Made by a program: the position numbers and the translations under genes. A stretch of 64,000 nt of DNA from a virus, in IMG/VR virus record IMGVR_UViG_3300047476_001402, positions 26,384 to 90,383 of that record; one strand, 5' to 3'. This document shows positions 42,382-58,900 of the stretch, piece by piece (position 1 is the first letter of the stretch; each line of letters starts with the position of its first letter). The notes below the pieces were generated by a model. The model did not search any database. It had not been told where the DNA came from and was given only the letters and a program-made list of their open reading frames with translations.

Positions 42382-42389
42382 ATTTTGTT

Positions 42390-43039: not shown

Positions 43040-43121
43040 ATGGAGGTCAATTTACCACACATAGACTTATAATGCAACTTATATGTCAGAGTTTATTAAA
43101 CGATTCGAATAAGTATCTTAT

Positions 43122-43838: not shown

Positions 43839-43843
43839 TTGTA

Positions 43844-43922: not shown

Positions 43923-44086
43923 TTTTATTTTTACTTACTTATATTCCCCAATCATCTCTTATAGAAAAAACTAAACCATTTGCCAAAAGATCTTTGCCTT
44001 CTTTTCTAAGCTCTGCAACCTCTTTCCATCGAATATCTTCATAATATCCAGAAGATTGTGCTTTTTCATGTTTTTCAAAAATATCA

Positions 44087-44747: not shown

Positions 44748-44760
44748 ATTTTATTTTTAA

Positions 44761-44846
44761 TGGCGGTTCCTAATCGCATCGAACAATTAACCTTTCAGTC
44801 ACCGTGCTTTTCAAGAGCACTTGAGGAGCCAACCTCGGTAGGAACC
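44761..44846 (-). tRNA. tRNA-Ser(TGA)
   Basis: GTGCT-CTTGAAA-AGCAC, long V arm, G73 CCA. Confidence 0.85.
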
Positions 44847-45020
44847 ATATCTTCTATTTACACTCTTCTTTTTTCTTCTGAAAATATTCAACTATATTAT
44901 TTTCCAACTGTCGTTGTTCTTCTTGTTCTACAATATCCTGTGCATTAAGAAAAGTAGCAAAAGAATTTGGTGGAAGATTAAAATATTCTGATAATGTTTT
45001 CATTTTTTCTCCATAATTTT

Positions 45021-45127
45021 TGGTGGACTATATGAGATTCGAACTCACTCGGGGTTGCGCACTCCCTTTCCGATTGCATCATCAGAATCCCCTCTGATTA
45101 ATAACCTCGATGTTAATTAGCTAGCCC
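45021..45127 (-). ncRNA. tRNA-like RNA with G3:U70, no D stem and no anticodon (tmRNA-TLD-like)
   Basis: GGGCTAG/ATAGTCC-A-CCA; GTGAG-TTCGAAT-CTCAT; TCGAGGTT/AACCCCGA helix enclosing two hairpins. Confidence 0.7.
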
Positions 45128-45132
45128 ATTTA

Positions 45133-45729
45133 TTACTTTTTCTTTAAATCGTTCACAAGAACATTCCATTGCCGAGTTAATTCAAATGAACTACATAAAC
45201 CATGTGATCTATGCTGTTCTGCGAGTTTACTGCTCATATTATTTCCAATCTTTATAAGAGTATTAATTTTTTCTAAATATTCGGAGAAATCTTTAATCGA
45301 TAATTCTGTTTTCATTTTCTATCTTTTTTGCAACACATTTACCTTTATTATCAAATACAGAAACTTTAAATCCATGTGCAATCGCATATTCCCATGCTTG
45401 CAGTAGATATTCTCGATACTCCACGCTCATTTCTATGAGTTCATCTCGGTGCCTATCTCTAAGGGTATCGGTATTTATGTCTTTAAAATATTTCATAATT
45501 GTTTATACCAGACACTTAATTTCCAATCAATAGGACTATCGTTAATAGTCTCGATAATTTTCAAATATTTTTGATTACCCATTGCGACACCACGCTTAAC
45601 TGGATATTCATAGACATTGACTTCTACAACATCCATTCGCCACTGTAAACCGTTGTATTGTTTTACAACATAAATTCCAGTATTACGTATATGTCCTATA
45701 CAATAATTGTCCGTATCCTCGATTTTCAT
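45133..45729 (-). other. Three small hypothetical ORFs (45133-45315, 45293-45496, 45493-45729)
   Basis: Overlapping co-oriented ORFs. Confidence 0.5.
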
Positions 45730-45732
45730 TCT

Positions 45733-46455
45733 TCAAATTACTCTAGATTGTGCTATTGTCAAGAACTGTCTCACTTTTTGTAGGTCAAATTTATCTTCTG
45801 TCCTCAACCAAGTCTCTGCATCAATCCAAATCGGAACCTCGATAATCTCGTCCAATTTTTGCAACTGACTCTCTAGGTTCTCAACTGATAAACCTCCTGC
45901 ATAACCCGTGTAAACACCATCCAAAGGCAAATCCCATTCAGAAGGTAGAACCCCCGCACCATGAGATAGATCATAAAGAGCAGAAATGTTACTAATACCC
46001 ATAAGATCAAGTTCATGAATATAGTTATTCACTTTATCATACTGTGCAATAAATTGGATATTCTGGTTATATCCGATGTTTTGTATCAAAACATCTAAAT
46101 CAACTTTATGTTTCTCACCATGAGTATTAATTTGAATACGATCAAACCATTCAGGTTCAAGGTACTCTACAAATGTTAGGCCATGTAACCAATTCTTCTG
46201 TAAGATTTCATTTACATATTCTCCACATAAATGTCCAGATAATTTTAAACTTGCTCCTCCTTCAGTAAGGCGACATTTTTCGAGCTTATATAGCCAATCT
46301 CTAGATGGAAACCTATTCGATTTTCCTGCCTGTCTTTTAGACAGAAGAATGCCCCATTCAACAAATGGAAACTCTTTTTGAATTTCCGCCATTTCCTCAA
46401 TAGAAGTATCATCAGATGCTCCTGTTACTGTTACAGTTTTTAAATATTTTTTCAT
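45733..46455 (-). CDS. TrpF (PRAI)-like TIM-barrel phage protein
   Basis: VTVTGA.D, VEWGILLS, SGHLCG, RIQIN, LYD.S.G.G, GYAGGL, WIDAE. Confidence 0.65.
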   Translation of the reverse strand: MKKYLKTVTVTGASDDTSIEEMAEIQKEFPFVEWGILLSKRQAGKSNRFPSRDWLYKLEKCRLTEGGASLKLSGHLCGEYVNEILQKNWLHGLTFVEYLEPEWFDRIQINTHGEKHKVDLDVLIQNIGYNQNIQFIAQYDKVNNYIHELDLMGISNISALYDLSHGAGVLPSEWDLPLDGVYTGYAGGLSVENLESQLQKLDEIIEVPIWIDAETWLRTEDKFDLQKVRQFLTIAQSRVI

Positions 46456-46677
46456 TGTTTAAATTCTTCCAAAGAAAATATCAATATTATCGGGATATTT
46501 TCTCCATTGTGTTGTTCTCACTGTTCGTTTTGTTTTACACCATTTACACTCTTCATAATCGTCATGACATTTACTGGTTTGTTTAATTAACTTAATTGGT
46601 GAATAACACCTTTCACAAACCCATGCAGGCCATCTCTTTAAGATTTGAGTATCGTGTAAAACATCTCTCATTAAATT

Positions 46678-46752
46678 TGGTTCCCTTGGACGGTAATGCT
46701 CCGTCTTAGATAGCGTCACAAGCTATGAAATTACTTTTATTATACGAAGGGA
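46678..46752 (-). tRNA. tRNA-His(GTG)
   Basis: ATAGC-TTGTGAC-GCTAT; T-loop AGCATTA; acceptor register irregular. Confidence 0.75.
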
Positions 46753-46762
46753 TTTTTAAATT

Positions 46763-46838
46763 TGGTAGGCTCTACAAGATTCGAACTTGTACTTTGAAAT
46801 CCAAAATTTCAAGTGCTAGACCATTACACCAAGAGCCT
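46763..46838 (-). tRNA. tRNA-Gln(TTG)
   Basis: TGAAA-TTTTGGA-TTTCA; CCA. Confidence 0.88.
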
Positions 46839-46846
46839 ATTTAATG

Positions 46847-46917
46847 CATGTCCCAAACGAATTGAACGCTTGATTACAAGGTTGGAACTTGTCGTGTTAC
46901 CTCTACACTAGGGACAT
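46847..46917 (-). tRNA. tRNA-Trp(CCA)
   Basis: ACAAG-TTCCAAC-CTTGT; G73; CCA not encoded. Confidence 0.85.
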
Positions 46918-46926
46918 ATTTAAATC

Positions 46927-46955
46927 ACTTTACACCATCTACTTATCGTTGTCAA
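46927..46955 (-). promoter_or_regulatory. sigma70-like promoter of tRNA sub-cluster
   Basis: TTGACA-17-TAAAGT. Confidence 0.65.
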
Positions 46956-47319
46956 ACTCTTTTAACAAGATATTTCTCATATACTCAATTATCTTATGCC
47001 GATTTTCTTTAAACTTTTTAAGAGTTTGCTCCGCCTGTTCTTTTGTTACAGAGTGATCTATATCAGACGGAAAATATGGAACAGCCCTTATTATCTTATT
47101 TTTCATCTAATATAACTTGTCCAAGTTTTCGGATTTCATCTTTTAAATTATTGCCGGTTGTTGTCGCCTCTATGAGGGCATTTGGTCCAGCTTCTACATC
47201 AATATCATATATAATAATATTTCCTTCGGCGCGAACACTCTCACTGTCGAAAATTTTAAAACATATCTCCGTATGAAAAGGATGTTTTATTTTAGATGAT
47301 ATTTCTGTTTTCACTATTT

Positions 47320-47394
47320 TGGAGGTCAATTACGGACTTGCGCCGTACTATTCGGAGTACAAAACCGAAACATCGCTATCTATGCTTATTGACC
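47320..47394 (-). tRNA. tRNA-Thr(TGT)
   Basis: TCGG...TTTGTAC...CCGA; T-loop CGCAAGT. Confidence 0.82.
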
Positions 47395-47883
47395 ATTTTC
47401 AACTTGATGGATACTATGTCTAGTTTCCCTCTCTGCTACATCTTTATTTACATTACCAATATACCAAATTCCATTTTTTCTCTTATTCCATAATCTTTTT
47501 TCATTAATAATACGCTCAAATATTCCATCATCGGAATCACTGATAACAGGATTTATTGCATTCCATGCATATTTCCCATATGCAATAAACAATGTAATTG
47601 TTTCTCCATGTAACTTATCTATTCTATGATATGTCTTATTACTTCTTAATATAAGATCTCCCGCTGTATATCTCCTCTGTGATAAAACATCATTGTCTAA
47701 TATCATTTCGGTGTATCCACCTCTCAAAATTATACTAATATAATGAAAAGGATGATTATGAAATAAACTAGTCTTGTCTTCACTTGTTATCTTATGTATA
47801 CGAATATGTAATTTTCCAATTTTTAATATCGTAAAACGATGTAAAAAATCTTTAATATTACTATAAGGTTTGAATAACTTCAT
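47386..47883 (-). CDS. Cupin-like protein
   Basis: LFHNHPF..ISIILRGGY.E...YHRI. Confidence 0.6.
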   Translation of the reverse strand: MKLFKPYSNIKDFLHRFTILKIGKLHIRIHKITSEDKTSLFHNHPFHYISIILRGGYTEMILDNDVLSQRRYTAGDLILRSNKTYHRIDKLHGETITLFIAYGKYAWNAINPVISDSDDGIFERIINEKRLWNKRKNGIWYIGNVNKDVAERETRHSIHQVENGQ

Positions 47884-47903
47884 ACAATATTATTATTAAT
47901 ATT

Positions 47904-47982
47904 TGGTGCGGTATGTCGGAATCGAACCGACTAAATCCTTCGCATTGGAAGTGCGACGTGCGACCATTTACACCTATACCGC
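47904..47982 (-). tRNA. tRNA-Gly(TCC)
   Basis: TCGCA-CTTCCAA-TGCGA; CCA. Confidence 0.88.
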
Positions 47983-47990
47983 AATATAAT

Positions 47991-48052
47991 TATCAAAGAT
48001 AGGATTTTAAACCTATATAGCCCGAGGGCATCTTCCATTAGATCACTCTGAT
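47991..48052 (-). ncRNA. Anticodon-less mini tRNA-like RNA
   Basis: ATCAGAG-TG-ATCT-AATGGA-AGAT-GCCCTCGGGC-TAT-ATAGG-TTTAAAAT-CCTAT-CTTTGAT-A. Confidence 0.65.
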
Positions 48053-48060
48053 ATATCTAC

Positions 48061-48669
48061 TTACTCAAACTTTCCTCCATCTACAAACTGTTGCCACTCT
48101 TCTCTCATAAATTTCATAGAATATGAATTTTTCGGTTTTTCTGGCTTCTTCAAAAGTTTCAGACCACATTCCTTTGGAGTTCTATCGCCCTTCCAGATAT
48201 TTAGAGCCTTCTGACATGTTGCAAGGTTTTCCCAAGTGTTTTGCCCACCTCTAGAAACTGGAAGAATATGATCAATGGAAATGTTATCCCTTGTGAGCTT
48301 TTCACCAGTATATAAACAAGTCCAATTATCGCGATCCCAAATATTACTCTTAGTAGGAAATACCGCCTTCTTGTTGACAATCTTATTAAATTTAGAACAC
48401 ACCACGATACTTGGCATACGGATACTTCCTTTAGAAGTTTTCACGTATTCATCATAATCTCTAAGCGGTAACTGTTTCCAAGATTCAAAATCTTTAACAA
48501 CTTCCATACTTACGATTTTTTTACGATCTACATTTCCCGCCTCATCAACATCGTACCAAACATCTAAAGGATGAACCGCACCAGAAAAGATATTAGTCAT
48601 AGTATCTTTCCAAGATTCTGTTCCGATAGGATAAAATCCCCTATTTAATTTTAATACTTCTTGTTTCAT
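48061..48669 (-). CDS. HNH endonuclease (McrA-like)
   Basis: VL.LN..F.P, NIWDRD.WTC.YTG, IDHILP.SRGG.NTWENL.TC...N..KGDRTP. Confidence 0.88.
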   Translation of the reverse strand: MKQEVLKLNRGFYPIGTESWKDTMTNIFSGAVHPLDVWYDVDEAGNVDRKKIVSMEVVKDFESWKQLPLRDYDEYVKTSKGSIRMPSIVVCSKFNKIVNKKAVFPTKSNIWDRDNWTCLYTGEKLTRDNISIDHILPVSRGGQNTWENLATCQKALNIWKGDRTPKECGLKLLKKPEKPKNSYSMKFMREEWQQFVDGGKFE

Positions 48670-48722
48670 TCAATATTCTACAACACTCCTTTCTTTTTGT
48701 CAATCATCTTCTGTAATTTAAC

Positions 48723-48866
48723 ATCCCCGCCTATCAGTTTCCATCCCTGATTTGGTTATTTTTTGCGTCTGATAAAACGCTTTCCTCCTTCCAGACTAGC
48801 GAGTATCAATTCGCACGGCTTTCTTCATCTGGTTTATTTGACGGGATTTTTAGACTTGCGTCCTAG
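48723..48866 (-). ncRNA. Putative multi-stem ncRNA
   Basis: ATCCCGTC/GGCGGGGAT closing stem around three hairpins; GC-rich intergenic island. Confidence 0.5.
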
Positions 48867-48875
48867 TTAAACAAA

Positions 48876-49100
48876 TTACGAACACATACATGTTCCATAG
48901 TCACAACAACAATTCGATGACCACACCTCGCAAAGGGAACACCAAGACATCTGACCGCCACACATATAACACGTTTCTGGGTAATTATATTTTCTATCGG
49001 CTTCCCGAGCTTTTATTCGTGCAGCATCTTTCCGACGTTTATTCTCACGTCTTCCTACGATGGGATTTTTCAAATAAAATCTGGTTAATGTTCTGTTCAT
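48876..49100 (-). CDS. Small Cys-rich protein
   Basis: CYMC...WCSLC...CCCDYGTCMCS. Confidence 0.55.
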   Translation of the reverse strand: MNRTLTRFYLKNPIVGRRENKRRKDAARIKAREADRKYNYPETCYMCGGQMSWCSLCEVWSSNCCCDYGTCMCS

Positions 49101-49107
49101 AATAAAT

Positions 49108-49169
49108 TGATGGACACGATGAGACTCGAACTCACAGTTGGAAACGCACTACCATTATGCTACATGCCC
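49108..49169 (-). ncRNA. Anticodon-less tRNA-like RNA with G3:U70 and A73
   Basis: GGGCATG-TA-GCAT-AATGGTA-GTGC-GTTTCCAACT-GTGAG-TTCGAGT-CTCAT-CGTGTCC-A-TCA. Confidence 0.75.
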
Positions 49170-49207
49170 ATATAACCATACTACCGAAACTGAAAAGGTC
49201 AACAACA

Positions 49208-50051
49208 TTAATCTTTAATCGGTTTCAATTCTAATCCATACAGCACTTCATCAAGTACAAGAAAATCAACATGTGCAGCAAATGCAAAATTTAATAATTG
49301 CATTCTAATATCTGCCAATTCTTCGGGAGTATAACCCCAAGTGGCTTGTAAATCATTTAAAATTTTATCAAGTGTAGGTGTTTTCATTTCCAAACTTTTT
49401 TATATGTTGTAACTTTCATTTCAATACTAGGCGAATCGCTTTCATAAAAACAACCACCATAATCAATTTCTGCTGATACTACGACTTGAATATCATCATT
49501 TTCAAAAACTGTATGACCCCAACGATCAACTTGTACTTCACTTAAAAGTTCTAAATGTAGTTTAGGTGGAATTCTCGCTGCCTTTTTCTTTGCCATATTA
49601 TTCGTATCTAGTCGATTTAAATCCACAAGAAGGGCAATGAACATTATATTGTCCTGGACATGATAGTAACATCATACCGGGACATGTGAACACCATTTCA
49701 ACCTCTCTATTTTCGGGCGGAAGAATACATTTAGGACAAGCAACTCTTGCTCCATTCCTAGAACTAAGCCTTCCGAAATGTTTATTATATTCATCAAGCG
49801 TTAACATGTTCTGAATTCCAATTCGTTATATAATTCCCATTATATTCTATTCCTATAAAATCCTCTGAAACGAATCTGCCCCACGGTCCAGACGGTCCTG
49901 AATTTTTCCATTCAATGTTTATAAACTTTTGAATTATATGAAAATATAACACATTCTCGAAAATTATGTCTTTTTCGGACGGACTTTCACTTTGTAGATA
50001 TAATATTCCTCCGTCGAATTTTCCACTGGTTATTTTAGGACAAACAAACAT
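49208..50051 (-). other. Run of four small hypothetical ORFs
   Basis: Co-oriented ORFs 49208-49393, 49384-about 49596, 49598-49807 (Zn ribbon), 49794-50051. Confidence 0.5.
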
Positions 50052-50052
50052 A

Positions 50053-50505
50053 TTATTGTAATTTCTGTCCTACTAATGTAGAAATTGTCTTATTATCAGT
50101 TGCACCGTTTGCGAGTTCCACGACACGTTTAATAACTTTACCCATGTCGCGTTTAGATGTAGCACCAAGCTCTGCAATTGCAGAATCAACCATATCACTC
50201 ACCTGATCATTTGTAAGAGCCGCAGGAAGGTATTCCTTGAGAATTGCCATCTCATTATACTCTCTGATAGCAAGGTCTGCCCTATTTGCCTTATCATAGG
50301 CATCAAAGGAATCCTCCCGTTGTGCAACCTGTTTACGCACAATTCCTAGAGCCTCTACATCGTCCAAAGGATTGTTCACGTTCCCCTTAATAATAGCAGC
50401 ATTCGTGAATGCATTCTTAAGTTGGCGTAATACTGCAAGTCTTCCTGAATCGGAATTCTTCATTGCAATTTTAATATCTTCGTTAATTTTTTCTTGTAGT
50501 TTCAT
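50053..50505 (-). CDS. yqeY: GatB/YqeY domain protein
   Basis: D.K.AMK, RKQV.QREDS...Y..A.R.DLA..E..E..IL..YLP, GATS.RDMGKV. Confidence 0.9.
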   Translation of the reverse strand: MKLQEKINEDIKIAMKNSDSGRLAVLRQLKNAFTNAAIIKGNVNNPLDDVEALGIVRKQVAQREDSFDAYDKANRADLAIREYNEMAILKEYLPAALTNDQVSDMVDSAIAELGATSKRDMGKVIKRVVELANGATDNKTISTLVGQKLQ

Positions 50506-50845
50506 CTTTTATTGTATTTAAAATTTTTTTAAATCGTTGTTGTTGTTTTTCCCAATGAAGGTTTTCTAATTTTCGGAATTCAATACCATCTTCTATCTCT
50601 TTTATCTGAATTGTTGTTTGCTTTATATATTTTTCGAGAGCCTGTTCAGGAGTATAGCTTATAATCTGTATAGGAATGTCGTTCCCATCATCTAACAATG
50701 CCCACACATATTCTATTCCTTTTGAATATATTTCTTTTCTTATTCCAATTACAGTTTTCTCTAGTAATTTATGACACTGAGTATCTTCGCCATAATCAGC
50801 CGTGACATATTGATAACACTGAAATGGAATTTGTTTGTCGATCAT
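50483..50845 (-). CDS. Hypothetical protein
   Basis: ORF. Confidence 0.5.
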   Translation of the reverse strand: MIDKQIPFQCYQYVTADYGEDTQCHKLLEKTVIGIRKEIYSKGIEYVWALLDDGNDIPIQIISYTPEQALEKYIKQTTIQIKEIEDGIEFRKLENLHWEKQQQRFKKILNTIKDETTRKN

Positions 50846-50981
50846 AGGGTATTATATATTCACCATTCTTCAAATACGGCATCCCAATCCACCGATTCAA
50901 CTTCTTCATCTGTGAAGAAAAGACTCGGCGTTATCGCGGGTTCATGTTTAGATTCTATCTTTGTTGTTTCTTCTTCCATTT

Positions 50982-51067
50982 TGGTGCCTCTGGTGGGACT
51001 CGAACCCACATAGGAATTTATTCCACAGATTAAGACTCTGTTGGTCGGCCAATTGACCCACAAAGGC
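50982..51067 (-). tRNA. tRNA with CTT (Lys) anticodon and a long variable arm
   Basis: ACAGA-GTCTTAA-TCTGT; V arm GGAAT-AA-ATTCC; A73 CCA. Confidence 0.8.
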
Positions 51068-51186
51068 ATATTAACCCTTATTTCGAAGAAAGGAAAGAAT
51101 TCGCTTTCCTGCCTCTTTTCCAAGAATTTTTAAATTTTTCCGAAGAACTTCAGAAAACGGATTTTGTTTTTTATTTTCTATAATTT

Positions 51187-51591
51187 TCATTTTACCACTT
51201 TAACTTCGTGCTCAACGCCATCAGCATTAAAATATGTAATTGTATAACGATCAAACGATGCTTGACAACAACTTTCAGGTTCATAAGGCCAACCAAAACA
51301 TAGAGCATTCAAATCATGGTCATTATCGGAAAAATCCTCACCACAAAAGACGTTCCACTCTGGAACAACTCTTTGATAATTATCGCGATCACCGCCACCA
51401 CGACCATAAGGATAAGCCTTTTCACAATCATCTAGAAATGTAATAAATCTTTCGATATGTTTATTATCTGGTGATACATATAGTGTTTCATATAACCAGC
51501 CATCTGCATCACCGATCATAAACCTTAGATAGAATTTATAAACATTGTTATATTTTGGCTTTTGAATTACTTTTCCGTGTTCTAGTTTCAT
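51187..51591 (-). CDS. Hypothetical protein
   Basis: ORF. Confidence 0.55.
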   Translation of the reverse strand: MKLEHGKVIQKPKYNNVYKFYLRFMIGDADGWLYETLYVSPDNKHIERFITFLDDCEKAYPYGRGGGDRDNYQRVVPEWNVFCGEDFSDNDHDLNALCFGWPYEPESCCQASFDRYTITYFNADGVEHEVKVVK

Positions 51592-51932
51592 AAGTTTTTG
51601 AAAGAACCGTCAAGGAATTTCTCAAATTCTCTTAACTTCCAAATCATATTCAATGCATATTTCATTTTAAGTTCTTCAACGGAATACACACCACCATTTA
51701 AGCCATTATCAGTTTTTACTAAACGATATTGATTTGTATAATTACAATACACGCTCCACGGTATTCTTATAATTTTAACAGAGGGATCATCGAAATTATA
51801 AGAAATACTTGGGTATGCATTATAGATATAATAAGGCTCTATGCCAACTTTCACATCACATTCTTGATGTGAAAGCATATCATCTTTAGTGGCACGTGCA
51901 GCAAAATATGCCAATAGCATCTTTTCGTTCAT
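51588..51932 (-). CDS. Hypothetical protein
   Basis: Coupled ORF. Confidence 0.55.
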   Translation of the reverse strand: MNEKMLLAYFAARATKDDMLSHQECDVKVGIEPYYIYNAYPSISYNFDDPSVKIIRIPWSVYCNYTNQYRLVKTDNGLNGGVYSVEELKMKYALNMIWKLREFEKFLDGSFKNL

Positions 51933-52100
51933 ATATTAAAACTTTTTTAATTTCCTCCGAGGATTTTTACTTTTACAGACGGAACACTTTCCGTATTGAC
52001 CAATATGATTCAAATCACATCTACACCAAAATAATTCTTTCTTTGCAGTTAGACTTTTCTCTCTATTGGTTTTTAGATATTCTTCCATAAGAAAAAACGC

Positions 52101-52176
52101 AAAGAGACGGGGACTCGAACCCCTCCTTATAACCCCCTTTCGGGCCAATTATAAAGAAATCCGCATACATCTCTTC
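52101..52176 (-). ncRNA. tRNA-like RNA with GAAA-capped long stem in place of anticodon arm
   Basis: GAAGAGAT/GTCTCTTT; CTTTATAATT..CCC-GAAA-GGG-GGTTATAAGG; GGGG-TTCGAGT-CCCC. Confidence 0.6.
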
Positions 52177-52183
52177 ATTTAAA

Positions 52184-52259
52184 TGGTCAAAATGGTGGGT
52201 AACGCTCCCACATCTACTGAATCCCAAATCCAGTGCAATTACTTGTCTGCCACATTCTG
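52184..52259 (-). tRNA. tRNA-Pro(TGG)
   Basis: CTGGA-TTTGGGA-TTCAG; C1:G72; T-loop AGCGTTA. Confidence 0.85.
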
Positions 52260-52268
52260 ATTAAAAAC

Positions 52269-52385
52269 TTTTCAATTACAGGATTTGCACCTGTTCCTAC
52301 ACATGTATATCTAATACTCTAAGACGGAATTGCACCGTTCTCACCCCTAGACGGGGGTTATGCTACTCTTACACTAAATTGAAAA
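52269..52385 (-). ncRNA. tRNA-like RNA with two T arms in one acceptor-like stem
   Basis: TTTTCAATT/AATTGAAAA; D arm; ACCCC-CGTCTA-GGGGT; ACGG-TGCAATT-CCGT; ACAGG-TGCAAAT-CCTGT. Confidence 0.62.
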
Positions 52386-52386
52386 C

Positions 52387-52460
52387 TGGTCCCTCCGTTT
52401 GGTAACTCTCCAAATTCACATGGTTAAAAGCCATATGCTTCAATTTAAAGCTTCGGAGGG
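52387..52460 (-). tRNA. tRNA-Lys(TTT)
   Basis: TATGG-CTTTTAA-CCATG; T-loop AGAGTTA. Confidence 0.82.
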
Positions 52461-52473
52461 ATTTTAAAATATT

Positions 52474-52548
52474 TGGTAACGCCTACGGGAGTCGAACCCG
52501 CATGATCTATCTTGAAAGGATAGTGTTCTACCGTTAAACTAAAGCGTC
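52474..52548 (-). tRNA. tRNA-Glu(TTC)
   Basis: CTATC-CTTTCAA-GATAG; CCA. Confidence 0.85.
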
Positions 52549-52705
52549 ATTTGAAAAATTTGTCAAGTTACTATATATTGACCACCCTTTTATAGAACAC
52601 CAATCTATCCATTCCCATTGTAATAATAGCGCGCACTCTTATTACGAGTTTGTGACTTTCGGAGTTGTTTATAAGCTTCCCCTAGATTCGTAAGGTATTT
52701 TTAAC

Positions 52706-52780
52706 TGGTATCCCCTGTTGGAATTGAACCAACGTTTATAGTCTGAGAAACTATTGTCCTAACCACTAGACGAAGGGGAC
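52706..52780 (-). tRNA. tRNA-Glu(CTC)
   Basis: ATAGT-TTCTCAG-ACTAT; CCA. Confidence 0.88.
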
Positions 52781-52795
52781 ATTTTTTACTACTCA

Positions 52796-53026
52796 CTAAG
52801 CTACACCATCATTTTCTTTTGTCAAGACCTTTTGTAAACTTTTCAGCATCTTAAAGTCATCACTTTCTTTCTCCATTTCTTCTGCTATACATTCCAGAAA
52901 AACACTCATTAATTCATCTTCAAACTCTTCTGCTTCTTGTGGATTGAGCGTTTTTAAATGTTTTTCAATTATTGGGTGCATTCTTAACTTTACATCAGGT
53001 TTCAGAAGAGTCAAAGGGTTTCTCAT
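52796..53026 (-). CDS. Hypothetical protein
   Basis: ORF. Confidence 0.5.
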   Translation of the reverse strand: MRNPLTLLKPDVKLRMHPIIEKHLKTLNPQEAEEFEDELMSVFLECIAEEMEKESDDFKMLKSLQKVLTKENDGVA

Positions 53027-53175
53027 CTTTTTCTACCTAAACAATAAAATGTTAACAATTCCTTCGCTTCTTCTGAAATATGTCGTCTATCTGCATTCCT
53101 CACCACTCTTTTTATATTACCCAAACGAATGGCTAAATCTTCATAAAGCTCTTTATAATCTTGTTCTTGCATTCG

Positions 53176-53376
53176 CTAACCTAGACTATCTTTATCTGAT
53201 GTCAAGAAGGTTTGAAGACTTTTTAACAATCCCAAACTCATTTGAAAACTTTCTAATATTTTACCATTTTTATACAAAGTACATCTATATCTTTCATTCC
53301 ATAAAAGCTCAAATCCTTTAGATTCTGCTTCTTGTTTGGCATTTGACCATACTTCTAATAAATCAGGTGTTATCAT
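53176..53376 (-). CDS. Hypothetical protein
   Basis: ORF. Confidence 0.45.
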   Translation of the reverse strand: MITPDLLEVWSNAKQEAESKGFELLWNERYRCTLYKNGKILESFQMSLGLLKSLQTFLTSDKDSLG

Positions 53377-53386
53377 TTTTTATAAT

Positions 53387-53464
53387 TGGCTCCTACCCGT
53401 GGTTACGATCCACGCTTATCGAGATTAACAGTCTCGCGCTTAACACCAAGCCAGCCCGATAGGA
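53387..53464 (-). tRNA. tRNA-Asn(GTT)
   Basis: CGAGA-CTGTTAA-TCTCG; G73 CCA; T-loop ATCGTAA. Confidence 0.88.
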
Positions 53465-53521
53465 TTTTTATTTTTTTGTTCGAATATGTTGATATATAAT
53501 CGAACGCTAATAAGTATTGTT

Positions 53522-54079
53522 ATGAAAGAACAAATACTCAAATTACGCTCAGAAGGACTCACATATAAAGAAATTTGTGATATTTTAAATTGTAGCAAAT
53601 CTACTGTATCATACTATTGCAATGATGTCTATCGAAAAAATGCTATCGAAAGAATTAAGATGAATAAGGAAAAGAATCCTTTAATAAAAAAGACAGAAAG
53701 CTTCAAAAAAGAAAAACGCCGTCTTAGAGTCAAATGTGAACACTTTCAATTACGAGACAACACATATAAAGGAAAACGATTACCGTTTGATTCAGAAAAA
53801 TTAAAATTTAACTGGAGAGACGTTATGGCTCTCTTAGAGGAAAATCCTCGTTGTTATTTGACGGGTGATATTTTGGATTTAGAAAACTTGAATACAATTT
53901 CTCTTGACCATAAAGTGCCAGTATCTAGGGGCGGAGATAATACTATCAACAATATGGGATTATGTACTAAAGATGCAAACCAATCAAAAGCGGCACTTAC
54001 TGTAGACGAATACATCGAACTATGTAAAAAGGTACTAACAAACTTCGGATACACTATTATCTCGCCGCTTCCCAATTAG
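53522..54079 (+). CDS. HTH-HNH homing endonuclease
   Basis: G.TY.EI...L.CSKSTV HTH; CYLTG...SLDH.VP.SRGG.N...N....N..K; TAAGTA before ATG 53522. Confidence 0.85.
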   Translation: MKEQILKLRSEGLTYKEICDILNCSKSTVSYYCNDVYRKNAIERIKMNKEKNPLIKKTESFKKEKRRLRVKCEHFQLRDNTYKGKRLPFDSEKLKFNWRDVMALLEENPRCYLTGDILDLENLNTISLDHKVPVSRGGDNTINNMGLCTKDANQSKAALTVDEYIELCKKVLTNFGYTIISPLPN

Positions 54080-54156
54080 CGTACAACACTTTGTTTTAGT
54101 GGTTAGCTACCGGGATTGATCGGCTCATTTATACTTTCCAAAATTCTTAAATTATC

Positions 54157-54231
54157 TGGCCGCTGTTACTGGTAACGATCCAGTCTTCGAAACTTTTCAG
54201 GCTTCGCGTTATCCATCCAACTTCAACAGCG
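54157..54231 (-). tRNA. tRNA-Phe(GAA)
   Basis: GAAGC-CTGAAAA-GTTTC; T-loop ATCGTTA; G73. Confidence 0.82.
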
Positions 54232-54349
54232 TGGTGCAGTGTTTTTACATAGAGATTATTCGGATTCCCGAAACTGCGATCTATGAGAACTTGATTAAGT
54301 TTGGTAACTCTATACGTGGTCCTTAGTCACGCTTAAATCTTGCCACCAC
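54231..54349 (-). ncRNA. Putative multi-stem ncRNA abutting tRNA-Phe
   Basis: GTGGTG(G)CA/TGCACCAC closing stem around three hairpins. Confidence 0.5.
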
Positions 54350-54417
54350 ACTTTTAATTGTCGTCCTCGATCTATGCTTGTATCGCTCGCTATGTTTATC
54401 TTTTTTCGGAAAACGTT

Positions 54418-54449
54418 GAAAACCCTGTTAGAACACTCTAACGGGTTTC
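54418..54449 (-). terminator. Conditional (attenuator-type) terminator upstream of tRNA array
   Basis: GAAACCC-GTTAGA-GTGT-TCTAAC-A-GGGTTTTC then AACGTTTT; its 5' strand can alternatively pair with ACTCTAA at the leader stop. Confidence 0.6.
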
Positions 54450-54461
54450 CCTCAATTAGAG

Positions 54462-54563
54462 TTATGAAATCTTTGTATTTCGTTCCCATTTGGGACTAAA
54501 CGAAACACTCCCTGCCGTTTTCGGCTCGGAGCTAATATTAAATTGTTTCGTATGAGATTTCAT
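54462..54563 (-). CDS. Putative leader peptide (33 aa) MKSHTKQFNISSEPKTAGSVSFSPKWERNTKIS
   Basis: Unannotated ORF with TAAGTA 11 nt upstream, diverse codons and a terminator hairpin 12 nt after the stop. Confidence 0.6.
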   Translation of the reverse strand: MKSHTKQFNISSEPKTAGSVSFSPKWERNTKIS

Positions 54564-54587
54564 ATCTGTTATTTTACTTACTCTATT

Positions 54588-54881
54588 TTAACACATTTTG
54601 TTTTGATTGCAAGAAGATTCTTCATATGTTTTAAAAAGTCCTTCAAACATATCTTCTAATATTACAATTTCAGCCTCGATCTTCGACTTTTCCAAAGTTG
54701 ATCCACCACAAGAAAATCGTTCATCTTCATTTCCATATGAATTATAGAACGTTGCATTGAAAAATCGACGTTCTTCGTCTTCATTGTTCGTGATTCGGAA
54801 ATATCCCATCTTTCCTATTCTAAGGTATGAACATTTACCATCAAGTTCGTTCTTCCAATTAAATTTAAATTGATTTGTCAT
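54588..54881 (-). CDS. Hypothetical protein
   Basis: ORF. Confidence 0.5.
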   Translation of the reverse strand: MTNQFKFNWKNELDGKCSYLRIGKMGYFRITNNEDEERRFFNATFYNSYGNEDERFSCGGSTLEKSKIEAEIVILEDMFEGLFKTYEESSCNQNKMC

Positions 54882-54974
54882 TTTATATATTTCTTAGTTT
54901 TCCGGTCATATCCGATATTTTTAAAGAAACTCCATAACATACAGTAAGAATTACTTATTTCAATAAATATAATC

Positions 54975-55532
54975 ATGCAACACAAAGAAGAATACGTCTA
55001 TAATGCACATAAAGGCTGGCAGTTAGTTCAAGAACAGGGTTATATATCCCAATCTAAAATTGGGCATATAAATTCGCCAGTAGAAAAAACTAAAAATAAA
55101 TTGAATTACTCTCCAGATTTTGGCGAAAAGGTAAAAATACAAAAGGATAGTGGACCAAAAATAAAAAAAGATTATACACCTTTATCAAAGGAAACTTCTA
55201 ATGATGCAGTGTATGTCGCCTATAACTCTTTGAAGAATTTTAGAGATGAAATTGGTAATAATCCTATCAACAGGGATTTATCAACAATTATGAGAGTAAC
55301 TGGAATGATAAACACTTTTATAAGGGAAAATTTTAATAACAAATACCAGGGTAAAAATCCTTCTACTATACCTGCCGCATTATCCAATCTATACAATTCA
55401 TTTCGTGAATTGACTGTTATTTTATCTGAAAAAGGGGATAGTGGACAATCAGGTTCTCTGTTTCGAAGTATAGCTGCACTTATGAACAATCATATTCAAA
55501 ATACAAAGGCTATTCGTCACAGTATTAAATAA
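54975..55532 (+). CDS. Hypothetical late protein
   Basis: TAAATA upstream. Confidence 0.6.
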   Translation: MQHKEEYVYNAHKGWQLVQEQGYISQSKIGHINSPVEKTKNKLNYSPDFGEKVKIQKDSGPKIKKDYTPLSKETSNDAVYVAYNSLKNFRDEIGNNPINRDLSTIMRVTGMINTFIRENFNNKYQGKNPSTIPAALSNLYNSFRELTVILSEKGDSGQSGSLFRSIAALMNNHIQNTKAIRHSIK

Positions 55533-55533
55533 T

Positions 55534-55608
55534 TGGTGCCTCGTCGGAGTTTCGAACTCCGTTTAAAATCCTTATGAAAGATTCTCGATGCCAAACCGAC
55601 CAAGAGGC
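55534..55608 (-). tRNA. tRNA-CAT (elongator Met or Ile2)
   Basis: AATCT-TTCATAA-GGATT; CCA. Confidence 0.8.
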
Positions 55609-55613
55609 AATAA

Positions 55614-55689
55614 TGGTTCCAGTCTGGGGATTTGCGCCGCCACTCTCAAACTTATGAGGCTTGAATGGTCACTAGACCACTTGACTGAA
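55614..55689 (-). tRNA. tRNA-CAT (Met or Ile2)
   Basis: CAAGC-CTCATAA-GTTTG; CCA. Confidence 0.78.
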
Positions 55690-55695
55690 TATCTT

Positions 55696-55724
55696 ATATT
55701 ACACTACTTATCATATGATGTCAA
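55696..55724 (-). promoter_or_regulatory. sigma70-like promoter at the head of the tRNA region
   Basis: TTGACA-17-TAATAT. Confidence 0.72.
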
Positions 55725-55936
55725 TCTTTTTTTGAAAAAGCTTCAAAAAAAGCCCAAATTGTTGAAATCAATATAATTATTATGCTTATTCCTCCGCAAA
55801 TAAGTGATACTATGTAAAATTTCCAAATAGATCCATCAAATGGTAATCTATTCATTTGGTAACATTTCTTGGTATAATCTCGTAAGAAATGAAAACCAAT
55901 AAGAGAATATACTATATACAGAAGGATACATATCAT
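55721..55936 (-). CDS. Small membrane protein
   Basis: Two hydrophobic segments. Confidence 0.45.
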   Translation of the reverse strand: MICILLYIVYSLIGFHFLRDYTKKCYQMNRLPFDGSIWKFYIVSLICGGISIIIILISTIWAFFEAFSKKD

Positions 55937-55984
55937 ATCATATTATAATAGAACGACTACTACTATTCAATAAATAAATACACA

Positions 55985-58900
55985 ATGATTTTAAATAATG
56001 TAGTATCTTCCGTGGCATTTCCCGCAGAACGCTTGGTAATTTCTATAAATGAACCAGATGTTCGCCTAGATAATGCACGATTAGGTCTTAGGGCTGCTAA
56101 TTATTACTACTATAATGAAAAATATTCTCCAAGTACATCTGTAGTTGTGTGGAATTCTAATACAGGAACCCCTACTGTTCTATCTCAACCTACGAATTCT
56201 GCATCAGTTCCTGCGGACTTCCCTATGACGTGGATCAATGATATTGTGGCTACTGCGGATAGAAACCATAACTATTTATACATGTCTATGTTAGGTGGAT
56301 TGTCTGGATTAACTATATATCCTACACAGCCTTACCCTATAATAATAAAAGTATCTAACAATCAGTGTACTATATCTGCGGGTATACTACCATTCCAATA
56401 TTTCGGATATGACGACCCCGTAACTCCTATTGAATTTAGAAAACAATTACCACTCTCCGCAGTAAAAAATGCAACACCCTTCGGAATAACATTTTCCAGT
56501 GCTTCGACTCCATATATATCTAAAACACGTAGAAACTATATCCAATCAACTACAAAGAACTATGCAAGAACATTTAATACTATACTAGGTAAAAAAATAA
56601 TAGATTCTAGTTTTAGCATAACATTACCAGTGGTATCATCAAATTTAGTAACTGATGAGGAAAATGTATGGAATGTAACATTGTACAAAGATGGTTCTCC
56701 GAATGTATCGACCATAGATACCACCAACGTTCTAACATATATTCCATCCGAGGAAATAACTGATGCATCAGGATTAGCCCCTGCAAATTATTTTACAGTA
56801 AAAACCTTAAATTGTGATACTGGTTTGTTACAAACAACCTTAGCGGCTCCTTTATATTTTGCAAAAAATCAAGAAGTTACCGTAACATATGAAACTTCTT
56901 CTCTTCTTACTGTAGGAAGATACTCCTTAACAAATCCATCTACTGACTATTATATATTATCCACTATTGATCCTATATATTTCTTTAATCAACGATTTTC
57001 TTATATGGGAGGGTCACTAGCGACCAACAGGGATGCATTCACTATAAGTTATTACCCATCAGCAGGAATAACCAATACACATACAGGTGATTATGGTATT
57101 TCATCAATAGACTCCTCTATAATATTCACGGATAATTTTTATCAAAACACCTTCAATGTAAACGTTAATTCCTCTAAAGCAAAAAAAAGATTTATAGAAC
57201 GTTCCGCAGATTTTAGCCTCAGTGCATATGATGTAGCAACTAATGTTATATATAATGCAAATGGGTGGATGCCTGCATCCGCAACCATGCGCTTTATAAA
57301 CGATGGTCTAGGAAATAGATATGTAGTGGGTATCCAGGTAAGCGCATTTACGGGTGCAATATATGACTGTGTCGATGATCTTGAATTTCTTTTAAATAAC
57401 AAAAATATTGTATTTGAAACATATATTAGCGAATCTAATGATTTATCCGCAACCATAAACACCACTATATTTCCTACACAAGATGAGGAACTGTTAATAA
57501 GATGGGACGCATATCCGCCTGAAAACATAGTATTTAAAAACATAGAAACTGGTGCTATACTAGAACGAAATACTCCATACCCTGCGGGAGAGATGTCTGT
57601 TCAAGTACATAATTTAGGGGTTGATAAAACTAAGATAACGCTATATTCTGAAGAATTTGATCTTTCTGCATCTTCATATTGGTTCCCTACTTCAGCGGTG
57701 CTAGGATCTGCCAGATTACAAATAGAGGGAAGTATATTAGATAACAAGCCTACTAATACCGGAACATTAAGTGCAATGGTAAGCAGAAACGGTCTATTGT
57801 ATCGTGCTCCTGAGAATTGCAGTATAATATGGAACGAATCAGCTTCTCCTAAAAAGGGACATATAGCAATATATACACCATCAAATGAATTACTATCTGA
57901 ATCTACTATATATCCTTCTGATGGTTACTCGGTAATATCACCAGTATTCTCTACTATACCAGTAACTGATAATCCTAATAAGATTACGTTCAATCTCACA
58001 TGTAACATATTCGATGAAGCATATAGTCTAAATGCTAATAAACTTTTCTATATGAGACAATACCCTGATCGAGAATTGTTGACTATTATTGCATCGTCTT
58101 CGGTCGGATTAAGTTCATATTTAAGTAGCAACACAGAAAATATAATAACAAACACTACCGGTATTTGGTACTTGTCTGCCCATTACCCTGATCTCATCAT
58201 ACCAAGTCCTTCGCATATAAAATGGAGTTACAGAACTTTAGGAGGATTGACTAATTATCTTACAGGCGCAACTATAAGTTTGAACATTTCTACGCTATCA
58301 ACAGTTATTAATGTGTCAGCAGGAGGAGTTGAACCATATTATGGGAACTTCCGATCCTATGATTTCTCAGATACTATATCTATACATGCATTATCCACTA
58401 TAAATCCTATAAGCTATATAGGATTTCCTGAAACAAATTATTTCCCATATTCCATAAACACGACAACAGATTATTCCAAATCAGTCGGAATGTCGGCCTT
58501 AAATGCTTGTAAAACCGAATCCTTTTATTTTTCTGCAACTCCTGGTTTTAATAAATATCGTTGGTCAGTTGGAGATCTTACCCAAGAAAGTGATTCTAAT
58601 GTAACAAAGATAGACGTTGCTTATAATAATATATCTTCAACTGGTATAGTTTCTGTTTCAGCTTTTGATAATATTTTTAAAGAAACCAATCAAATTACTA
58701 GATATAATACCGCATCATCTGATGATTCATCCATTTATAGGGAGCCTATTCGTTTCGAAGATTATCCAGCAGCAGCACTAACAATAGAAAGTAGTAATTC
58801 GCTAGTAGATATTAATAGATATTCAAGTTTACCAACCCTATACACAGATATTGGGACCACTGTCGGATTGGAATCTTTCAATTTCAACATAATCCTATCC

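Follow-up and report, generated by a model that had tools for sequence, protein, structure and literature searches.

The window analysed here is a stretch of 64,000 nt from the 90-kb IMG/VR virus record IMGVR_UViG_3300047476_001402 (positions 26,384 to 90,383 of that record), and all coordinates refer to the window. On its minus strand, a short region lies between a 97-aa gene and a tRNA-Phe gene. An earlier note proposed that this region encodes a leader peptide whose translation senses tRNA supply and gates the tRNA array that follows. The region and its surroundings contain the following features, all placed on the minus strand:

54585-54612, minus strand: sigma-70-like promoter candidate (TTGCAA, 16 nt, TG-extended TAAAAT) from a consensus scan (9/12 plus TG), located within the last codons of the 97-aa gene
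54581-54586, minus strand: TAGAGT, partner of ACTCTA (54462-54457), which lengthens the closing stem only in transcripts starting further upstream
54575-54580, minus strand: TAAGTA, member of the TAA[AG]TA motif, with a distance of 11 nt to the ATG and of 10 nt to the closing stem
54463-54564, minus strand: three-way-junction RNA, recognised by its fold energy, without an Rfam family
54462-54563, minus strand: 33-codon ATG frame from an open reading frame scan, probably incidental
54400-54556, minus strand: 157-nt contig X4 from a freshwater metatranscriptome library, 0 differences
54435-54462, minus strand: alternative (antiterminator) hairpin, ACTCTAAT paired with GTTAGAGT plus an inner GGG/CCC stem
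54418-54450, minus strand: terminator-like hairpin of 14 bp with one bulge, followed by TTTTC AACGTTTT
54232-54349, minus strand: downstream multi-stem RNA from folding, abutting tRNA-Phe
54157-54231, minus strand: tRNA-Phe (GAA), called by ARAGORN

All sequence features listed in the earlier note are present where it had placed them; the "pan-tRNA sensor gating 25 tRNAs" that it derived from them is unsupported. The TAAGTA hexamer at 54580-54575 belongs to a motif, TAA[AG]TA, that is enriched at gene starts of this phage. It occurs ≤20 nt upstream of the ATG in 18 of 86 long ORFs compared to 1.2 expected (~15-fold enrichment), with a spacing of 2-12 nt and a mode of 5 nt. The motif is also found 6-9 nt before tRNA-Val, tRNA-Leu(CAA), tRNA-Ala and a tRNA-Tyr from a relaxed call. 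Its position before tRNA genes suggests that it marks transcript starts and not translation starts, and TAA[AG]TA is likely a -10-type promoter element. Protein genes of this phage bearing the motif 2-12 nt before the ATG have no Shine-Dalgarno sequence. Because these genes share the motif with the 33-codon frame and lack a Shine-Dalgarno sequence, translation of the frame is not implausible. A consensus scan revealed no obvious promoter between the terminator-like hairpin and the non-coding RNA with tRNA-Phe downstream of it.

The two ends of the frame region are complementary, as had been observed before: TATGAAATCT (54564-54555) is the perfect 10-bp complement of AGATTTCATA (54472-54463). 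In the predicted fold, this closing stem is connected by a 24-nt single-stranded joiner to hairpin 1 (54530-54509), which is followed by hairpin 2 (54508-54475). The junction folds with -33.7 kcal/mol (z -5.39). None of 200 shuffles is equally stable, and only 11 of 10,622 windows of 102 nt in the 90-kb record reach this energy (top 0.1%), two of which are this locus. Pairing of the upstream TAGAGT (54586-54581) adds 4.5 kcal/mol to the junction (-38.2 vs. -33.7 kcal/mol). TAGAGT occurs at three sites within 274 nt (P 4.7e-5 per window, ~0.016 genome-wide). No Rfam family matches the locus, neither at the gathering score in a search of the window nor at E ≤10 in searches of 1.1 kb, 4.2 kb and 376 bases, and the same holds for riboswitch aptamer and T-box models. 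An rRNA-like match (a mimic of the 23S GTPase-associated centre) was not found in 51500-55700. Within the record, the only sequence paralogue is that of a hairpin core at 33435-33463.

Directly downstream of the junction, two hairpins share one strand. ACTCTAA (54462-54456) is the exact complement of TTAGAGT (54441-54435), and folding of the alternatives bears out the proposed mutual exclusivity, with -9.4 kcal/mol for the antiterminator and -15.8 kcal/mol for the terminator-like hairpin. The antiterminator consists of 8 bp plus the inner GGG/CCC stem and occupies the entire 5' strand of the terminator-like hairpin. Its strength is matched by 1.9% of 5,000 shuffles (upstream 25 nt; p 0.019) and by 6.3% of 2,443 genomic 25-mers (p 0.063). 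In nascent RNA modelled to 54433, the antiterminator forms whether or not the closing stem is present. The terminator hairpin proposed at 54449(50)-54418 does have a strong stem, but only 4 U precede a C, and a simple terminator scan did not list the hairpin owing to this short T run. The core of the stem recurs at 33435-33463, where it is part of a canonical terminator with a full T run. A separate search with the hairpin-core pattern AACCCGTTAGA-4-TCTAAC returned six loci, namely two ordinary terminators and four unrelated sites, of which three appear to be coding. These six loci and the phage have no proteins in common, save for one weak match to L005.

We give an about even chance to the reading that the locus is a structured RNA unit that does not code for protein and in which a leaky terminator competes with a second hairpin. 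TAAGTA, possibly aided by TTGCAA/TAAAAT upstream, would start transcription a few bases before the 102-nt junction RNA, the two ends of which would be locked by the 10-bp stem. The element directly 3' of this stem might adopt two states: an 11-bp hairpin would form first and sequester the 5' strand of the stabler terminator-like hairpin. If the terminator-like fold wins, the polymerase would stop soon after the hairpin, leaving a stable RNA of ~150-170 nt. If the antiterminator fold wins, the polymerase would read through into the next structured RNA, presumably the first element reached in this way, and into tRNA-Phe, which could then be freed by RNase P. Selection would act on the RNA folds and not on a peptide, and a ribosome would not be required. 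The 33-codon frame is probably a coincidence or a by-product of a stem that begins with ATG. The non-coding reading is favoured because the rare GC-rich codons of the frame coincide with stem positions and because its ATG is buried in the stem.

Several points count against an RNA-only reading. It is not apparent what a plain RNA gene would do with an antiterminator, the geometry of stop codon and antiterminator is that needed by an attenuator, and the antiterminator hairpin beats 98% of shuffles. Moreover, the U run is weak, and the X4 contig may represent DNA carry-over. If the RNA-only reading is true, the unit would represent a small structured RNA that is new and uncatalogued, with its own start signal and a stop/go element, standing at the entry to part of the tRNA cluster of a jumbo phage. 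It would thereby add to the view of phage tRNA clusters as dense in non-coding RNAs besides tRNAs.

The X4 contig covers 54400-54556 exactly and runs 18 nt beyond the hairpin; RNA libraries can contain DNA, and contigs reveal neither ends nor strand. No conclusion follows from the lack of cover on tRNA-Phe, the next RNA and the 97-aa gene. X4 covers only 54400-54556 of 2,301 bases, and a 157-nt contig would fall within 54400-54580 in 25 of 745 placements (3.4%) in 901 search bases; neither observation is counted as evidence. Sequencing runs with small shares are uninformative on the habitat.

Natural variation is available from contigs of related phages, of which only X7, a 12,282-nt contig of a wastewater phage, has diverged; it is known from a difference table and described here by the listed differences only. 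X7 keeps the 97-aa gene and the first 87 nt of the junction, and 54106-54232 including tRNA-Phe is identical. In between, X7 has 800 different bases in place of 54233-54476, the stretch that holds the closing stem's 3' strand, the switch and the next RNA. Thus, the unit is not conserved as a whole. Within the retained part, hairpin 1 carries 8 differences in or beside it and still folds with -10.4 kcal/mol, which is matched by 5.4% of 6,561 alternative letter sets (P 0.054). Hairpin 2 (54477-54508) is unchanged among the differences listed. A 175-nt X7 contig keeps 54465-54375 and is unlike the locus upstream. The lake-water contig X5 is ~99% identical from 54439 to 54616 and unlike past 54616. 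X6 is ~99% identical as well, and at this level both contigs are uninformative on conservation. Both contigs end at 54438/54439 inside the hairpin, probably at an assembly break caused by a repeat.

The main alternative, which we regard as rather unlikely, is a ribosome-gated leader-peptide attenuator. Here, the nearly leaderless 33-codon frame would be translated co-transcriptionally and would sense general translation speed and not particular tRNAs. A ribosome arriving at the stop codon in time would cover ACTCTAA and thereby allow the terminator to form, whereas a late or stalled ribosome would leave the antiterminator to form and permit read-through to the structured RNA and tRNA-Phe. The arrangement of the locus suits this logic in several respects. 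The frame starts 11 nt behind the start-associated motif, a spacing seen for real genes. The stop codon occupies 54464-54462 and the antiterminator helix begins at 54462. Helix and stop codon thus share one base, and a ribosome terminating there would be predicted to cover the antiterminator strand, in agreement with the stop-masking geometry suggested by the earlier note. Masking of 54479-54452 during folding leaves the terminator only, while masking of the 5' region leaves the antiterminator in the nascent RNA, as expected for an attenuator. In addition, the hairpins are fully exclusive, and no clear promoter separates the hairpin from tRNA-Phe.

The trp/his-type logic that had been invoked is only partly present, however. 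The pair of competing 2:3 and 3:4 hairpins exists, but the 1:2 step that would pre-empt 2:3 does not. The 10-bp closing stem and the antiterminator form together in nascent RNA and do not compete, and the sole competitor of the antiterminator is the 6-bp extension from 54586-54581, upstream of the likely start. As the closing stem is no competitor, a trp-type 1:2 hairpin is missing unless transcripts start upstream of 54586, and the default of an attenuator not occupied by a ribosome would be read-through. Furthermore, the start codon is locked in the 10-bp closing stem in the predicted fold, the frame crosses the apparently conserved -33.7 kcal/mol junction, and the stem is followed by 4 U only. 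X7 has an identical tRNA-Phe but lacks the switch or has another sequence in its place.

Nothing observed points to translation of the frame itself or to selective constraint on its peptide. The ATG ORF of 33 codons (54563-54462, minus strand) does encode 16 amino acids, with both Lys codons, both Glu codons and, across 7 Ser residues, all six Ser codons. An ATG followed by 32 sense codons is expected by chance with P 0.14, and the tRNA-Val gene, used as an internal control, shows the same accident: TAAGTA, 4 nt and an ATG open a 29-codon frame across the tRNA. The idea that the frame was designed to sample all codons is not supported, as its codon and amino-acid diversity are statistically ordinary (24 distinct codons out of 32, P 0.31-0.53; 15 amino acids over 32 codons, or 16 including the start Met, P 0.58-0.64). 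The occurrence of six Ser codons among 7 Ser has P 0.019 based on coding usage and 0.040 based on base composition, for a feature chosen post hoc. The GC-rich codons described as unexpected are present as well, but their positions are those of the stems of the two inner hairpins. A regulatory run of any codon is absent from the frame. Colinearity of the peptide with the downstream tRNAs (F, N, E, P, K, G, W ...) was also considered and rejected (longest common subsequence 9 vs. 7.66 +/- 1.05, P 0.20).

The coding score of the frame is 0.107 per codon, compared to 0.254 for genes and -0.043 for random small ORFs; 10% of the 33-codon windows of genes score below it, and the frame contains many rare codons. 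Among 1.84 billion protein representatives, the peptide has no true homologue and one spurious match to a repeat protein. The listed differences of X7 comprise 11 changes in the frame, distributed 5/3/3 over the codon positions; of the 7 codons affected, 6 are altered non-synonymously. In the adjacent 97-aa gene, the 26 listed changes are distributed 6/5/15 and 9 of 20 changed codons are non-synonymous. The two contrasts between frame and gene have Fisher P values of 0.15 and 0.09, neither significant alone. In total, 6 of 29 aligned residues are replaced at ~87% DNA identity, and the frame remains open over those 29 codons. Moreover, a second cassette of such design was not found in the 90-kb record: none of the 13 other sites with a motif and a short ORF (0/13) has a comparable body and hairpin. 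A frame of 30 codons over a structured RNA is expected by chance if the genome is AT-rich and has no Shine-Dalgarno sites. Hence, the frame and its "codon sampling" carry little weight unless joined by comparative or ribosome data.

It is unlikely in our view that a lake jumbo phage couples an accessory RNA and tRNA-Phe to host translation via a mini-frame over an apparently conserved junction, with slowed or damaged translation turning the genes on. If the attenuator is real, viral tRNA supply would be controlled by a sensor of translation status. Among the papers listed by a literature search, none describes a leader-peptide attenuator before phage tRNA genes. The locus resembles the trpL, hisL, pheL, thrL and leuL attenuators in its short promoter-proximal frame, its stop codon at the edge of the antiterminator and its exclusive hairpins. 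In contrast to trpL-type leaders, it has no regulatory codon run, 1:2 does not compete with 2:3 and the U run is short. Furthermore, the body of the frame is an apparently conserved three-way junction of very high stability, RNA genes lie downstream, and the frame is a candidate only. The closest logic to a general sensor is that of the mycobacterial whiB7 uORF attenuator, in which stalling in a uORF of variable sequence leads to antitermination, making it a sensor of general translation (PMC10274678). The whiB7 uORF is described there as having a conserved alanine bias and experimental support (PMC10274678), whereas the frame at this locus is predicted and of ordinary composition.

The locus can also be compared with riboswitch and T-box leaders, with which it shares a domain closed by a terminal stem and, directly thereafter, a competing hairpin pair. 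In contrast to these leaders, its terminal stem does not overlap the antiterminator, and no ligand-binding or tRNA-binding features were found. In longer transcripts, the upstream TAGAGT could act as an anti-antiterminator.

An improbable explanation for the antiterminator is a decayed or captured piece of a group I intron. The hairpin would then derive from the P3-J3/4-P4-J4/5-P5 core, accompanied by a trace of the R element, and would either have persisted by chance within a mosaic tRNA region or have been put to new use as a hairpin. Within 54461-54435, which resembles the P3-P5 segment of the group I core (RF00028), the run AATTG.GGGAAACCC.TTAGAG keeps 20 of 22 consensus bases. It is followed by TTCAACG (54420-54414), which matches the beginning of the R element in 4 of the 6 introns compared and lies in the right order. 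A 16-mer of the Rfam consensus matches the window only at 54457-54442 (2 mismatches), and any match was obtained in 2 of 100 shuffles. The 20-mer core occurs at at least 114 viral loci, and the locus keeps 18 of its 20 bases. A pattern derived from 54461-54436 matched 3 IMG/VR contigs, with L009 and L010 lying in Rfam-scored group I introns (79 and 60.7 bits), but L011 carries the pattern motif without an Rfam match, and 21 of the 26 matching bases were forced by the search pattern. Similarly, the best match of a profile of 82 viral cores in the window is 54461-54435, but this match extends over 27 nt only and has an E value of 0.16. An HNH gene lies nearby. Unlike group I introns, however, the locus lacks both a full-model score and the remaining core elements. 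Even at E ≤10, a search of 376 bases with RF00028 gave no match at the locus, and the highest score of this model anywhere in the record is 7.5 bits, at a different place. Neither Q and S elements nor P7 or a guanosine before the tRNA could be placed.

It is quite improbable that the junction and hairpin form the 3' UTR tail and terminator of the 97-aa gene, stabilising its mRNA. The unit does start 24 nt past the stop codon of this gene on the same strand, without an intervening hairpin. In a 201-nt fold (54600-54400), sequence upstream of the motif pairs with bases downstream of the hairpin, and X7 retains both the 97-aa gene and the initial 87 nt of the junction. However, X5 keeps the element (~99% from 54616 downstream) next to an unlike gene body, and the start motif and the sigma-70-like promoter lie between gene and junction. 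An ordinary gene for a 33-residue small protein with its own terminator is very improbable, for although a start motif is present, the frame outscores 10% of gene windows of its length and ORFs of similar kind occur between the tRNAs of the array, 6 of 29 residues are replaced without a third-position bias, no homologue exists among the proteins searched, rare codons are many and the RNA structure is extreme.

The proposed structured-RNA unit with its stop/go element would be followed, after read-through, by a second structured RNA and a tRNA. Stable RNAs within phage tRNA clusters are known from T4, whose cluster contains two of them, so that structured RNAs likewise lie among phage tRNA genes there. 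Another is the GOLLD RNA, reported from phage tRNA arrays in a paper citing Morgado 2020 (PMC12286853). Similar to GOLLD as described there, the RNA at this locus is a structured RNA among the tRNA genes of a lake-water phage; unlike GOLLD, it is far smaller, lacks sequence or Rfam similarity to it, and has its own promoter motif and a terminator-like end.

Sequence searches returned few relatives of the region. In blastn of 53400-56000 against 50,697 phage records, no relative was found, and searches with the 97-aa protein, a 1,706-aa protein and a 2-sequence alignment identified no related loci in viral or metagenome contigs. Exact and degenerate DNA patterns for hairpin 2 and tRNA-Phe had no match in viral or metagenome contigs. 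An overlapping 59-aa frame is absent from the protein collection searched. For the 97-aa gene, one homologue was found (P0002, 62% identity, on a 3,328-bp Logan contig).

Anabaena reportedly has a stress-induced tRNA array. Its repressor is TrcR (PMC10272220). Both that array and the phage locus would thus combine extra tRNA genes with transcription tied to the translation state, which is putative here; the link in Anabaena is a protein repressor in a bacterium (PMC10272220), whereas any link at this locus would be a putative RNA switch in a phage.

As for the tRNAs downstream of the locus, the 25 counted in the earlier note are hand calls; with default settings, ARAGORN finds 17 on the minus strand, and its relaxed mode adds a few. 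Gating of the entire array is unlikely, because an HNH gene on the plus strand begins 78 bases past tRNA-Phe and several later tRNAs have their own TAAGTA motifs. Between its tRNAs, the array also contains small ORFs of 49, 66 and 76 aa. The region between the terminator-like hairpin and tRNA-Phe (54420-54232) folds with -38.9 kcal/mol (z -1.79), and a lake-water contig spans 54233-54381 with 8 differences.

As judged from its predicted folds, the locus is a structured RNA unit that is real and absent from the catalogues, and the two-state element at its 3′ side is genuine. The 33-codon ATG frame at 54563-54462 (minus strand), taken in the earlier note for a tRNA-sensing leader peptide that gates the tRNA array, lies on a three-way-junction RNA followed by two alternative hairpins. 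The elements and their neighbours are:

54881-54588, minus strand: 97-aa gene, 5′ neighbour of the unit
54612-54585, minus strand: sigma-70-like TTGCAA-16-TG-TAAAAT, just upstream of TAAGTA (consensus scan)
54564-54463, minus strand: junction RNA, closed by a 10-bp stem from the frame's first and last bases, with a 24-nt single strand between closing stem and hairpin 1 (predicted fold)
54530-54509, minus strand: hairpin 1 (predicted fold)
54508-54475, minus strand: hairpin 2 (predicted fold)
54462-54435, minus strand: antiterminator hairpin
54450-54418, minus strand: terminator-like hairpin
54349-54232, minus strand: multi-stem RNA, the next RNA downstream
54231-54157, minus strand: tRNA-Phe, 3′ neighbour of the unit

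The 102 bases of the junction fold at -33.7 kcal/mol (z -5.39). This stability is equalled by 0 of 200 shuffles; of the record's 10,622 windows of equal length 11 reach it, two of them at this locus. No Rfam family matched the junction at any threshold tried. Other most stable 102-nt windows (-35 to -37.5 kcal/mol) lie at 34138-34301 (both strands), 36205-36222 (minus) and 26430 (minus). Within the junction, ACGAAAC in the single-stranded joiner (54545-54552) duplicates the 3′ strand of hairpin 2 (54476-54483) and is thereby an alternative partner for GTTTCGT (54499-54506, minus strand); this alternative fold arose on masking the stop region.

Natural variants were taken from difference tables of contigs from two lake-water runs and a wastewater run. 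In the 12,282-nt wastewater contig, a single variant for which only listed differences are counted, the frame carries 11 differences (5/3/3 over codon positions) and the residue is altered in six of seven changed codons, whereas the 97-aa gene has 6/5/15, with synonymous change in 11 of its 20 altered codons; Fisher's test gives P 0.15 and 0.09 for the two contrasts. Eight differences fall in or beside hairpin 1; a double change turns G-C into A-U, and the helix is re-registered and capped by a GAAA loop. The variant hairpin still folds at -10.4 kcal/mol, which 5.4% of 6,561 alternative letter sets at the same places equal. None of the listed differences touches hairpin 2. For this one variant and its listed differences, the pattern points to constraint on the RNA folds and not on the peptide. 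The same contig, from a related wastewater phage, shows no difference over 54106-54232 (tRNA-Phe); 800 different bases then replace 54233-54476. It realigns over 54477-54929 with 54 differences, after which 1,257 different bases replace 54930-55533 (a plus-strand 185-aa gene), and aligns once more over tRNA-Met. A 175-nt wastewater contig keeps 54465-54375 downstream of 83 unlike bases. Over 54438/9-54616/54589 the two lake-water contigs show one substitution and lack 1 nt at 54572, and one of them is unlike past 54616, within the 3′ end of the 97-aa gene. The tRNA-cluster region is thus a mosaic in which junction, switch and next RNA are separable.

All literal features described in the earlier note are present: TAAGTA, the frame with its six Ser codons, the ACTCTAA/TTAGAGT complementarity, the hairpin, and ends of the frame that pair perfectly over 10 bp. 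They do not weigh equally. The probability that 32 sense codons follow an ATG in this genome is 0.14, and ATG frames of 28-44 codons number 231 across the record. At the tRNA-Val gene, TAAGTA, 4 nt and an ATG open a 29-codon frame that spans the whole tRNA (37313-37325, minus strand), an in-genome case of an accidental frame across a structured RNA. Coding usage and base composition each predict the codon diversity (24 distinct codons out of 32) and the amino-acid diversity (P 0.31-0.64); all six Ser codons among seven Ser have P 0.019 or 0.040, a feature noticed post hoc. The rare GC-rich codons are stem bases of the two hairpins. The frame's coding score per codon is 0.107, an intermediate value: 33-codon windows of genes score 0.254 (sd 0.116) and random small frames -0.043 (sd 0.121). 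A full HMMER pass for peptide homologues over 1.84 billion representative proteins returned a single hit. This is a repeat protein of 347 aa, matched at nine short stretches, and is regarded as spurious.

The phage lacks Shine-Dalgarno sites, GGAG and GAGG each occurring in three of 86 upstream regions. Among 86 long ORFs, 18 carry TAA[AG]TA in the 20 nt ahead of their ATG against 1.2 expected, the commonest spacing being 5 nt (examples from the whole-record count: 36130, 43110, 53511, 54964, 55971). tRNA-Val, tRNA-Leu(CAA), tRNA-Ala and a relaxed-call tRNA-Tyr likewise have it 6-9 nt ahead of their mature 5′ ends. Standing before both ORF ATGs and tRNA 5′ ends, the motif therefore marks transcript starts. 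Its distribution suggests a phage -10-type promoter element, with many to most genes leaderless or nearly so. At this locus TAAGTA ends 10 nt ahead of the closing stem, which would place the RNA start a few bases 5′ of its terminal helix. Such a start is typical of stable RNA, and the spacing is equally compatible with a short-leader mini-gene.

The mutual exclusion of the two 3′ folds, also proposed earlier, is real and modestly beyond chance. The antiterminator hairpin (-9.4 kcal/mol against -15.8 kcal/mol for the terminator-like hairpin) consists of 8 bp and an inner GGG/CCC stem and so sequesters the entire 5′ strand of its rival. Set against shuffled versions of the upstream 25 nt it is better in 98.1% of cases, and against 25-mers from the genome in 93.7%. 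In modelled nascent RNA, closing stem and antiterminator form side by side, and the predicted default without a ribosome is antitermination. The sole competitor for the antiterminator would be a 6-bp closing-stem extension by TAGAGT 54586-54581, upstream of the likely start. The terminator-like hairpin is followed by a U run of four, and the consensus terminator scan did not list it; at 33435-33463 its stem core (AACCCGTTAGA ... TCTAAC) recurs in a canonical A/T-flanked, T-rich bidirectional terminator. A freshwater metatranscriptome library contains a 157-nt contig that agrees with 54400-54556 at 0 differences, which counts as presence only, since DNA can occur in such libraries and contigs give no ends; the contig reaches 18 nt beyond the hairpin, and at least some molecules therefore do not end there. 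TAGAGTT (54312-54306) is the exact complement of AACTCTA (54463-54457), and the downstream RNA could therefore pair with the antiterminator strand. TAGAGT occurs three times in 274 nt (54312, 54440, 54585, minus strand) and at 22 sites in 90 kb (approximately P 0.016 genome-wide).

A structured RNA that has a start motif of its own and a 3′ hairpin accounts for the extreme fold and the rare "codons", for an ATG buried in a stem, for the changes seen in the variant and for the missing peptide homologues. We give a non-coding structured RNA unit, with or without an RNA-level switch, about an even chance of being the correct reading. It needs an incidental frame (about 0.14, with the in-genome precedent) and perhaps an antiterminator (0.02-0.06) that is incidental or serves an RNA-only switch. 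A ribosome-gated attenuator of leader-peptide type, which we consider possible but rather doubtful, accounts for the stop/antiterminator geometry and for the frame. It leaves unexplained that the frame is a conserved junction of -33.7 kcal/mol in which the start codon is paired, and no sign of frame translation was seen. Leader-peptide attenuators have the closest logic among known systems, yet the element here fails both on regulatory codons and on 1:2 pairing. For a general sensor, the nearest logic is that of the whiB7 uORF system (PMC10274678). Closest in kind are the non-coding RNAs of phage tRNA clusters (GOLLD, PMC12286853), to which the element shows no similarity. The literature searches found no published attenuator preceding phage tRNA genes.

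A leader-peptide sensor is a possible but unsupported reading, and likewise unsupported is its extension to all tRNAs or to tRNA damage: codon diversity is ordinary and residue order does not correspond to tRNA order (P 0.20). Nor is the suggested gating of 25 tRNAs supported, as an HNH gene lies on the plus strand 78 bases past tRNA-Phe and later tRNAs have their own TAA[AG]TA motifs; any gating would reach the next RNA and tRNA-Phe at most.

The remaining weight falls on three other readings, namely a relic of a group I intron, a 3′ UTR and a small protein. The first is a minor rival: the locus may hold a captured group I intron fragment, or the likeness may be coincidence. An antiterminator-derived pattern matched three viral contigs, two of the hits lying within the P3-J3/4-P4-J4/5-P5 core of Rfam-scored group I introns. 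The viral intron class whose P3-P5 core the antiterminator hairpin resembles is abundant, the core 20-mer being carried by at least 114 IMG/VR viral loci, some in giant-virus MAG records. The Rfam consensus 16-mer has its sole window match here (2 mismatches; any match in 2 of 100 shuffles). A profile of 82 core loci matched the window best at 54461-54435 (minus strand), over 27 nt only and at E 0.16, and RF00028 has no match at the locus. TTCAACG at 54420-54414 (minus strand) equals the start of the R element of group I introns.

The source virus record (90,383 bp, of which the window is bases 26384-90383) is approximately 34% complete by CheckV, has a GC content of 34% and carries genes for ribonucleotide reductase, NAMPT, DUF1501/DUF1549/DUF1553 proteins and a match to the PurZ-like adenylosuccinate synthetase family. 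Its long minus-strand tRNA cluster (approximately 37,000-55,600), interspersed with small ORFs, holds 18 tRNAs by ARAGORN default and a few more at relaxed settings; sequencing runs containing the stretch are freshwater, lake and wastewater metagenomes. A 20-codon frame at 54878-54940 (minus strand) starts 11 nt after TAAGTA (54952-54957), and its TGA overlaps the ATG of the 97-aa gene (ATGA); it could be an upstream coupled mini-frame or an accident. The 383-aa protein at 23520-24671 (minus strand) matches a PHROG family annotated 2-aminooxy adenylosuccinate synthetase (PurZ-like; E 8.8e-57), which hints at modified adenine in the phage DNA. Phage-borne DUF1501 and DUF1549/DUF1553 (PSCyt2/PSD1) genes lie at 19592-22726 (minus strand); Planctomycetes and Verrucomicrobia typically carry these families, which may be a clue to the host.
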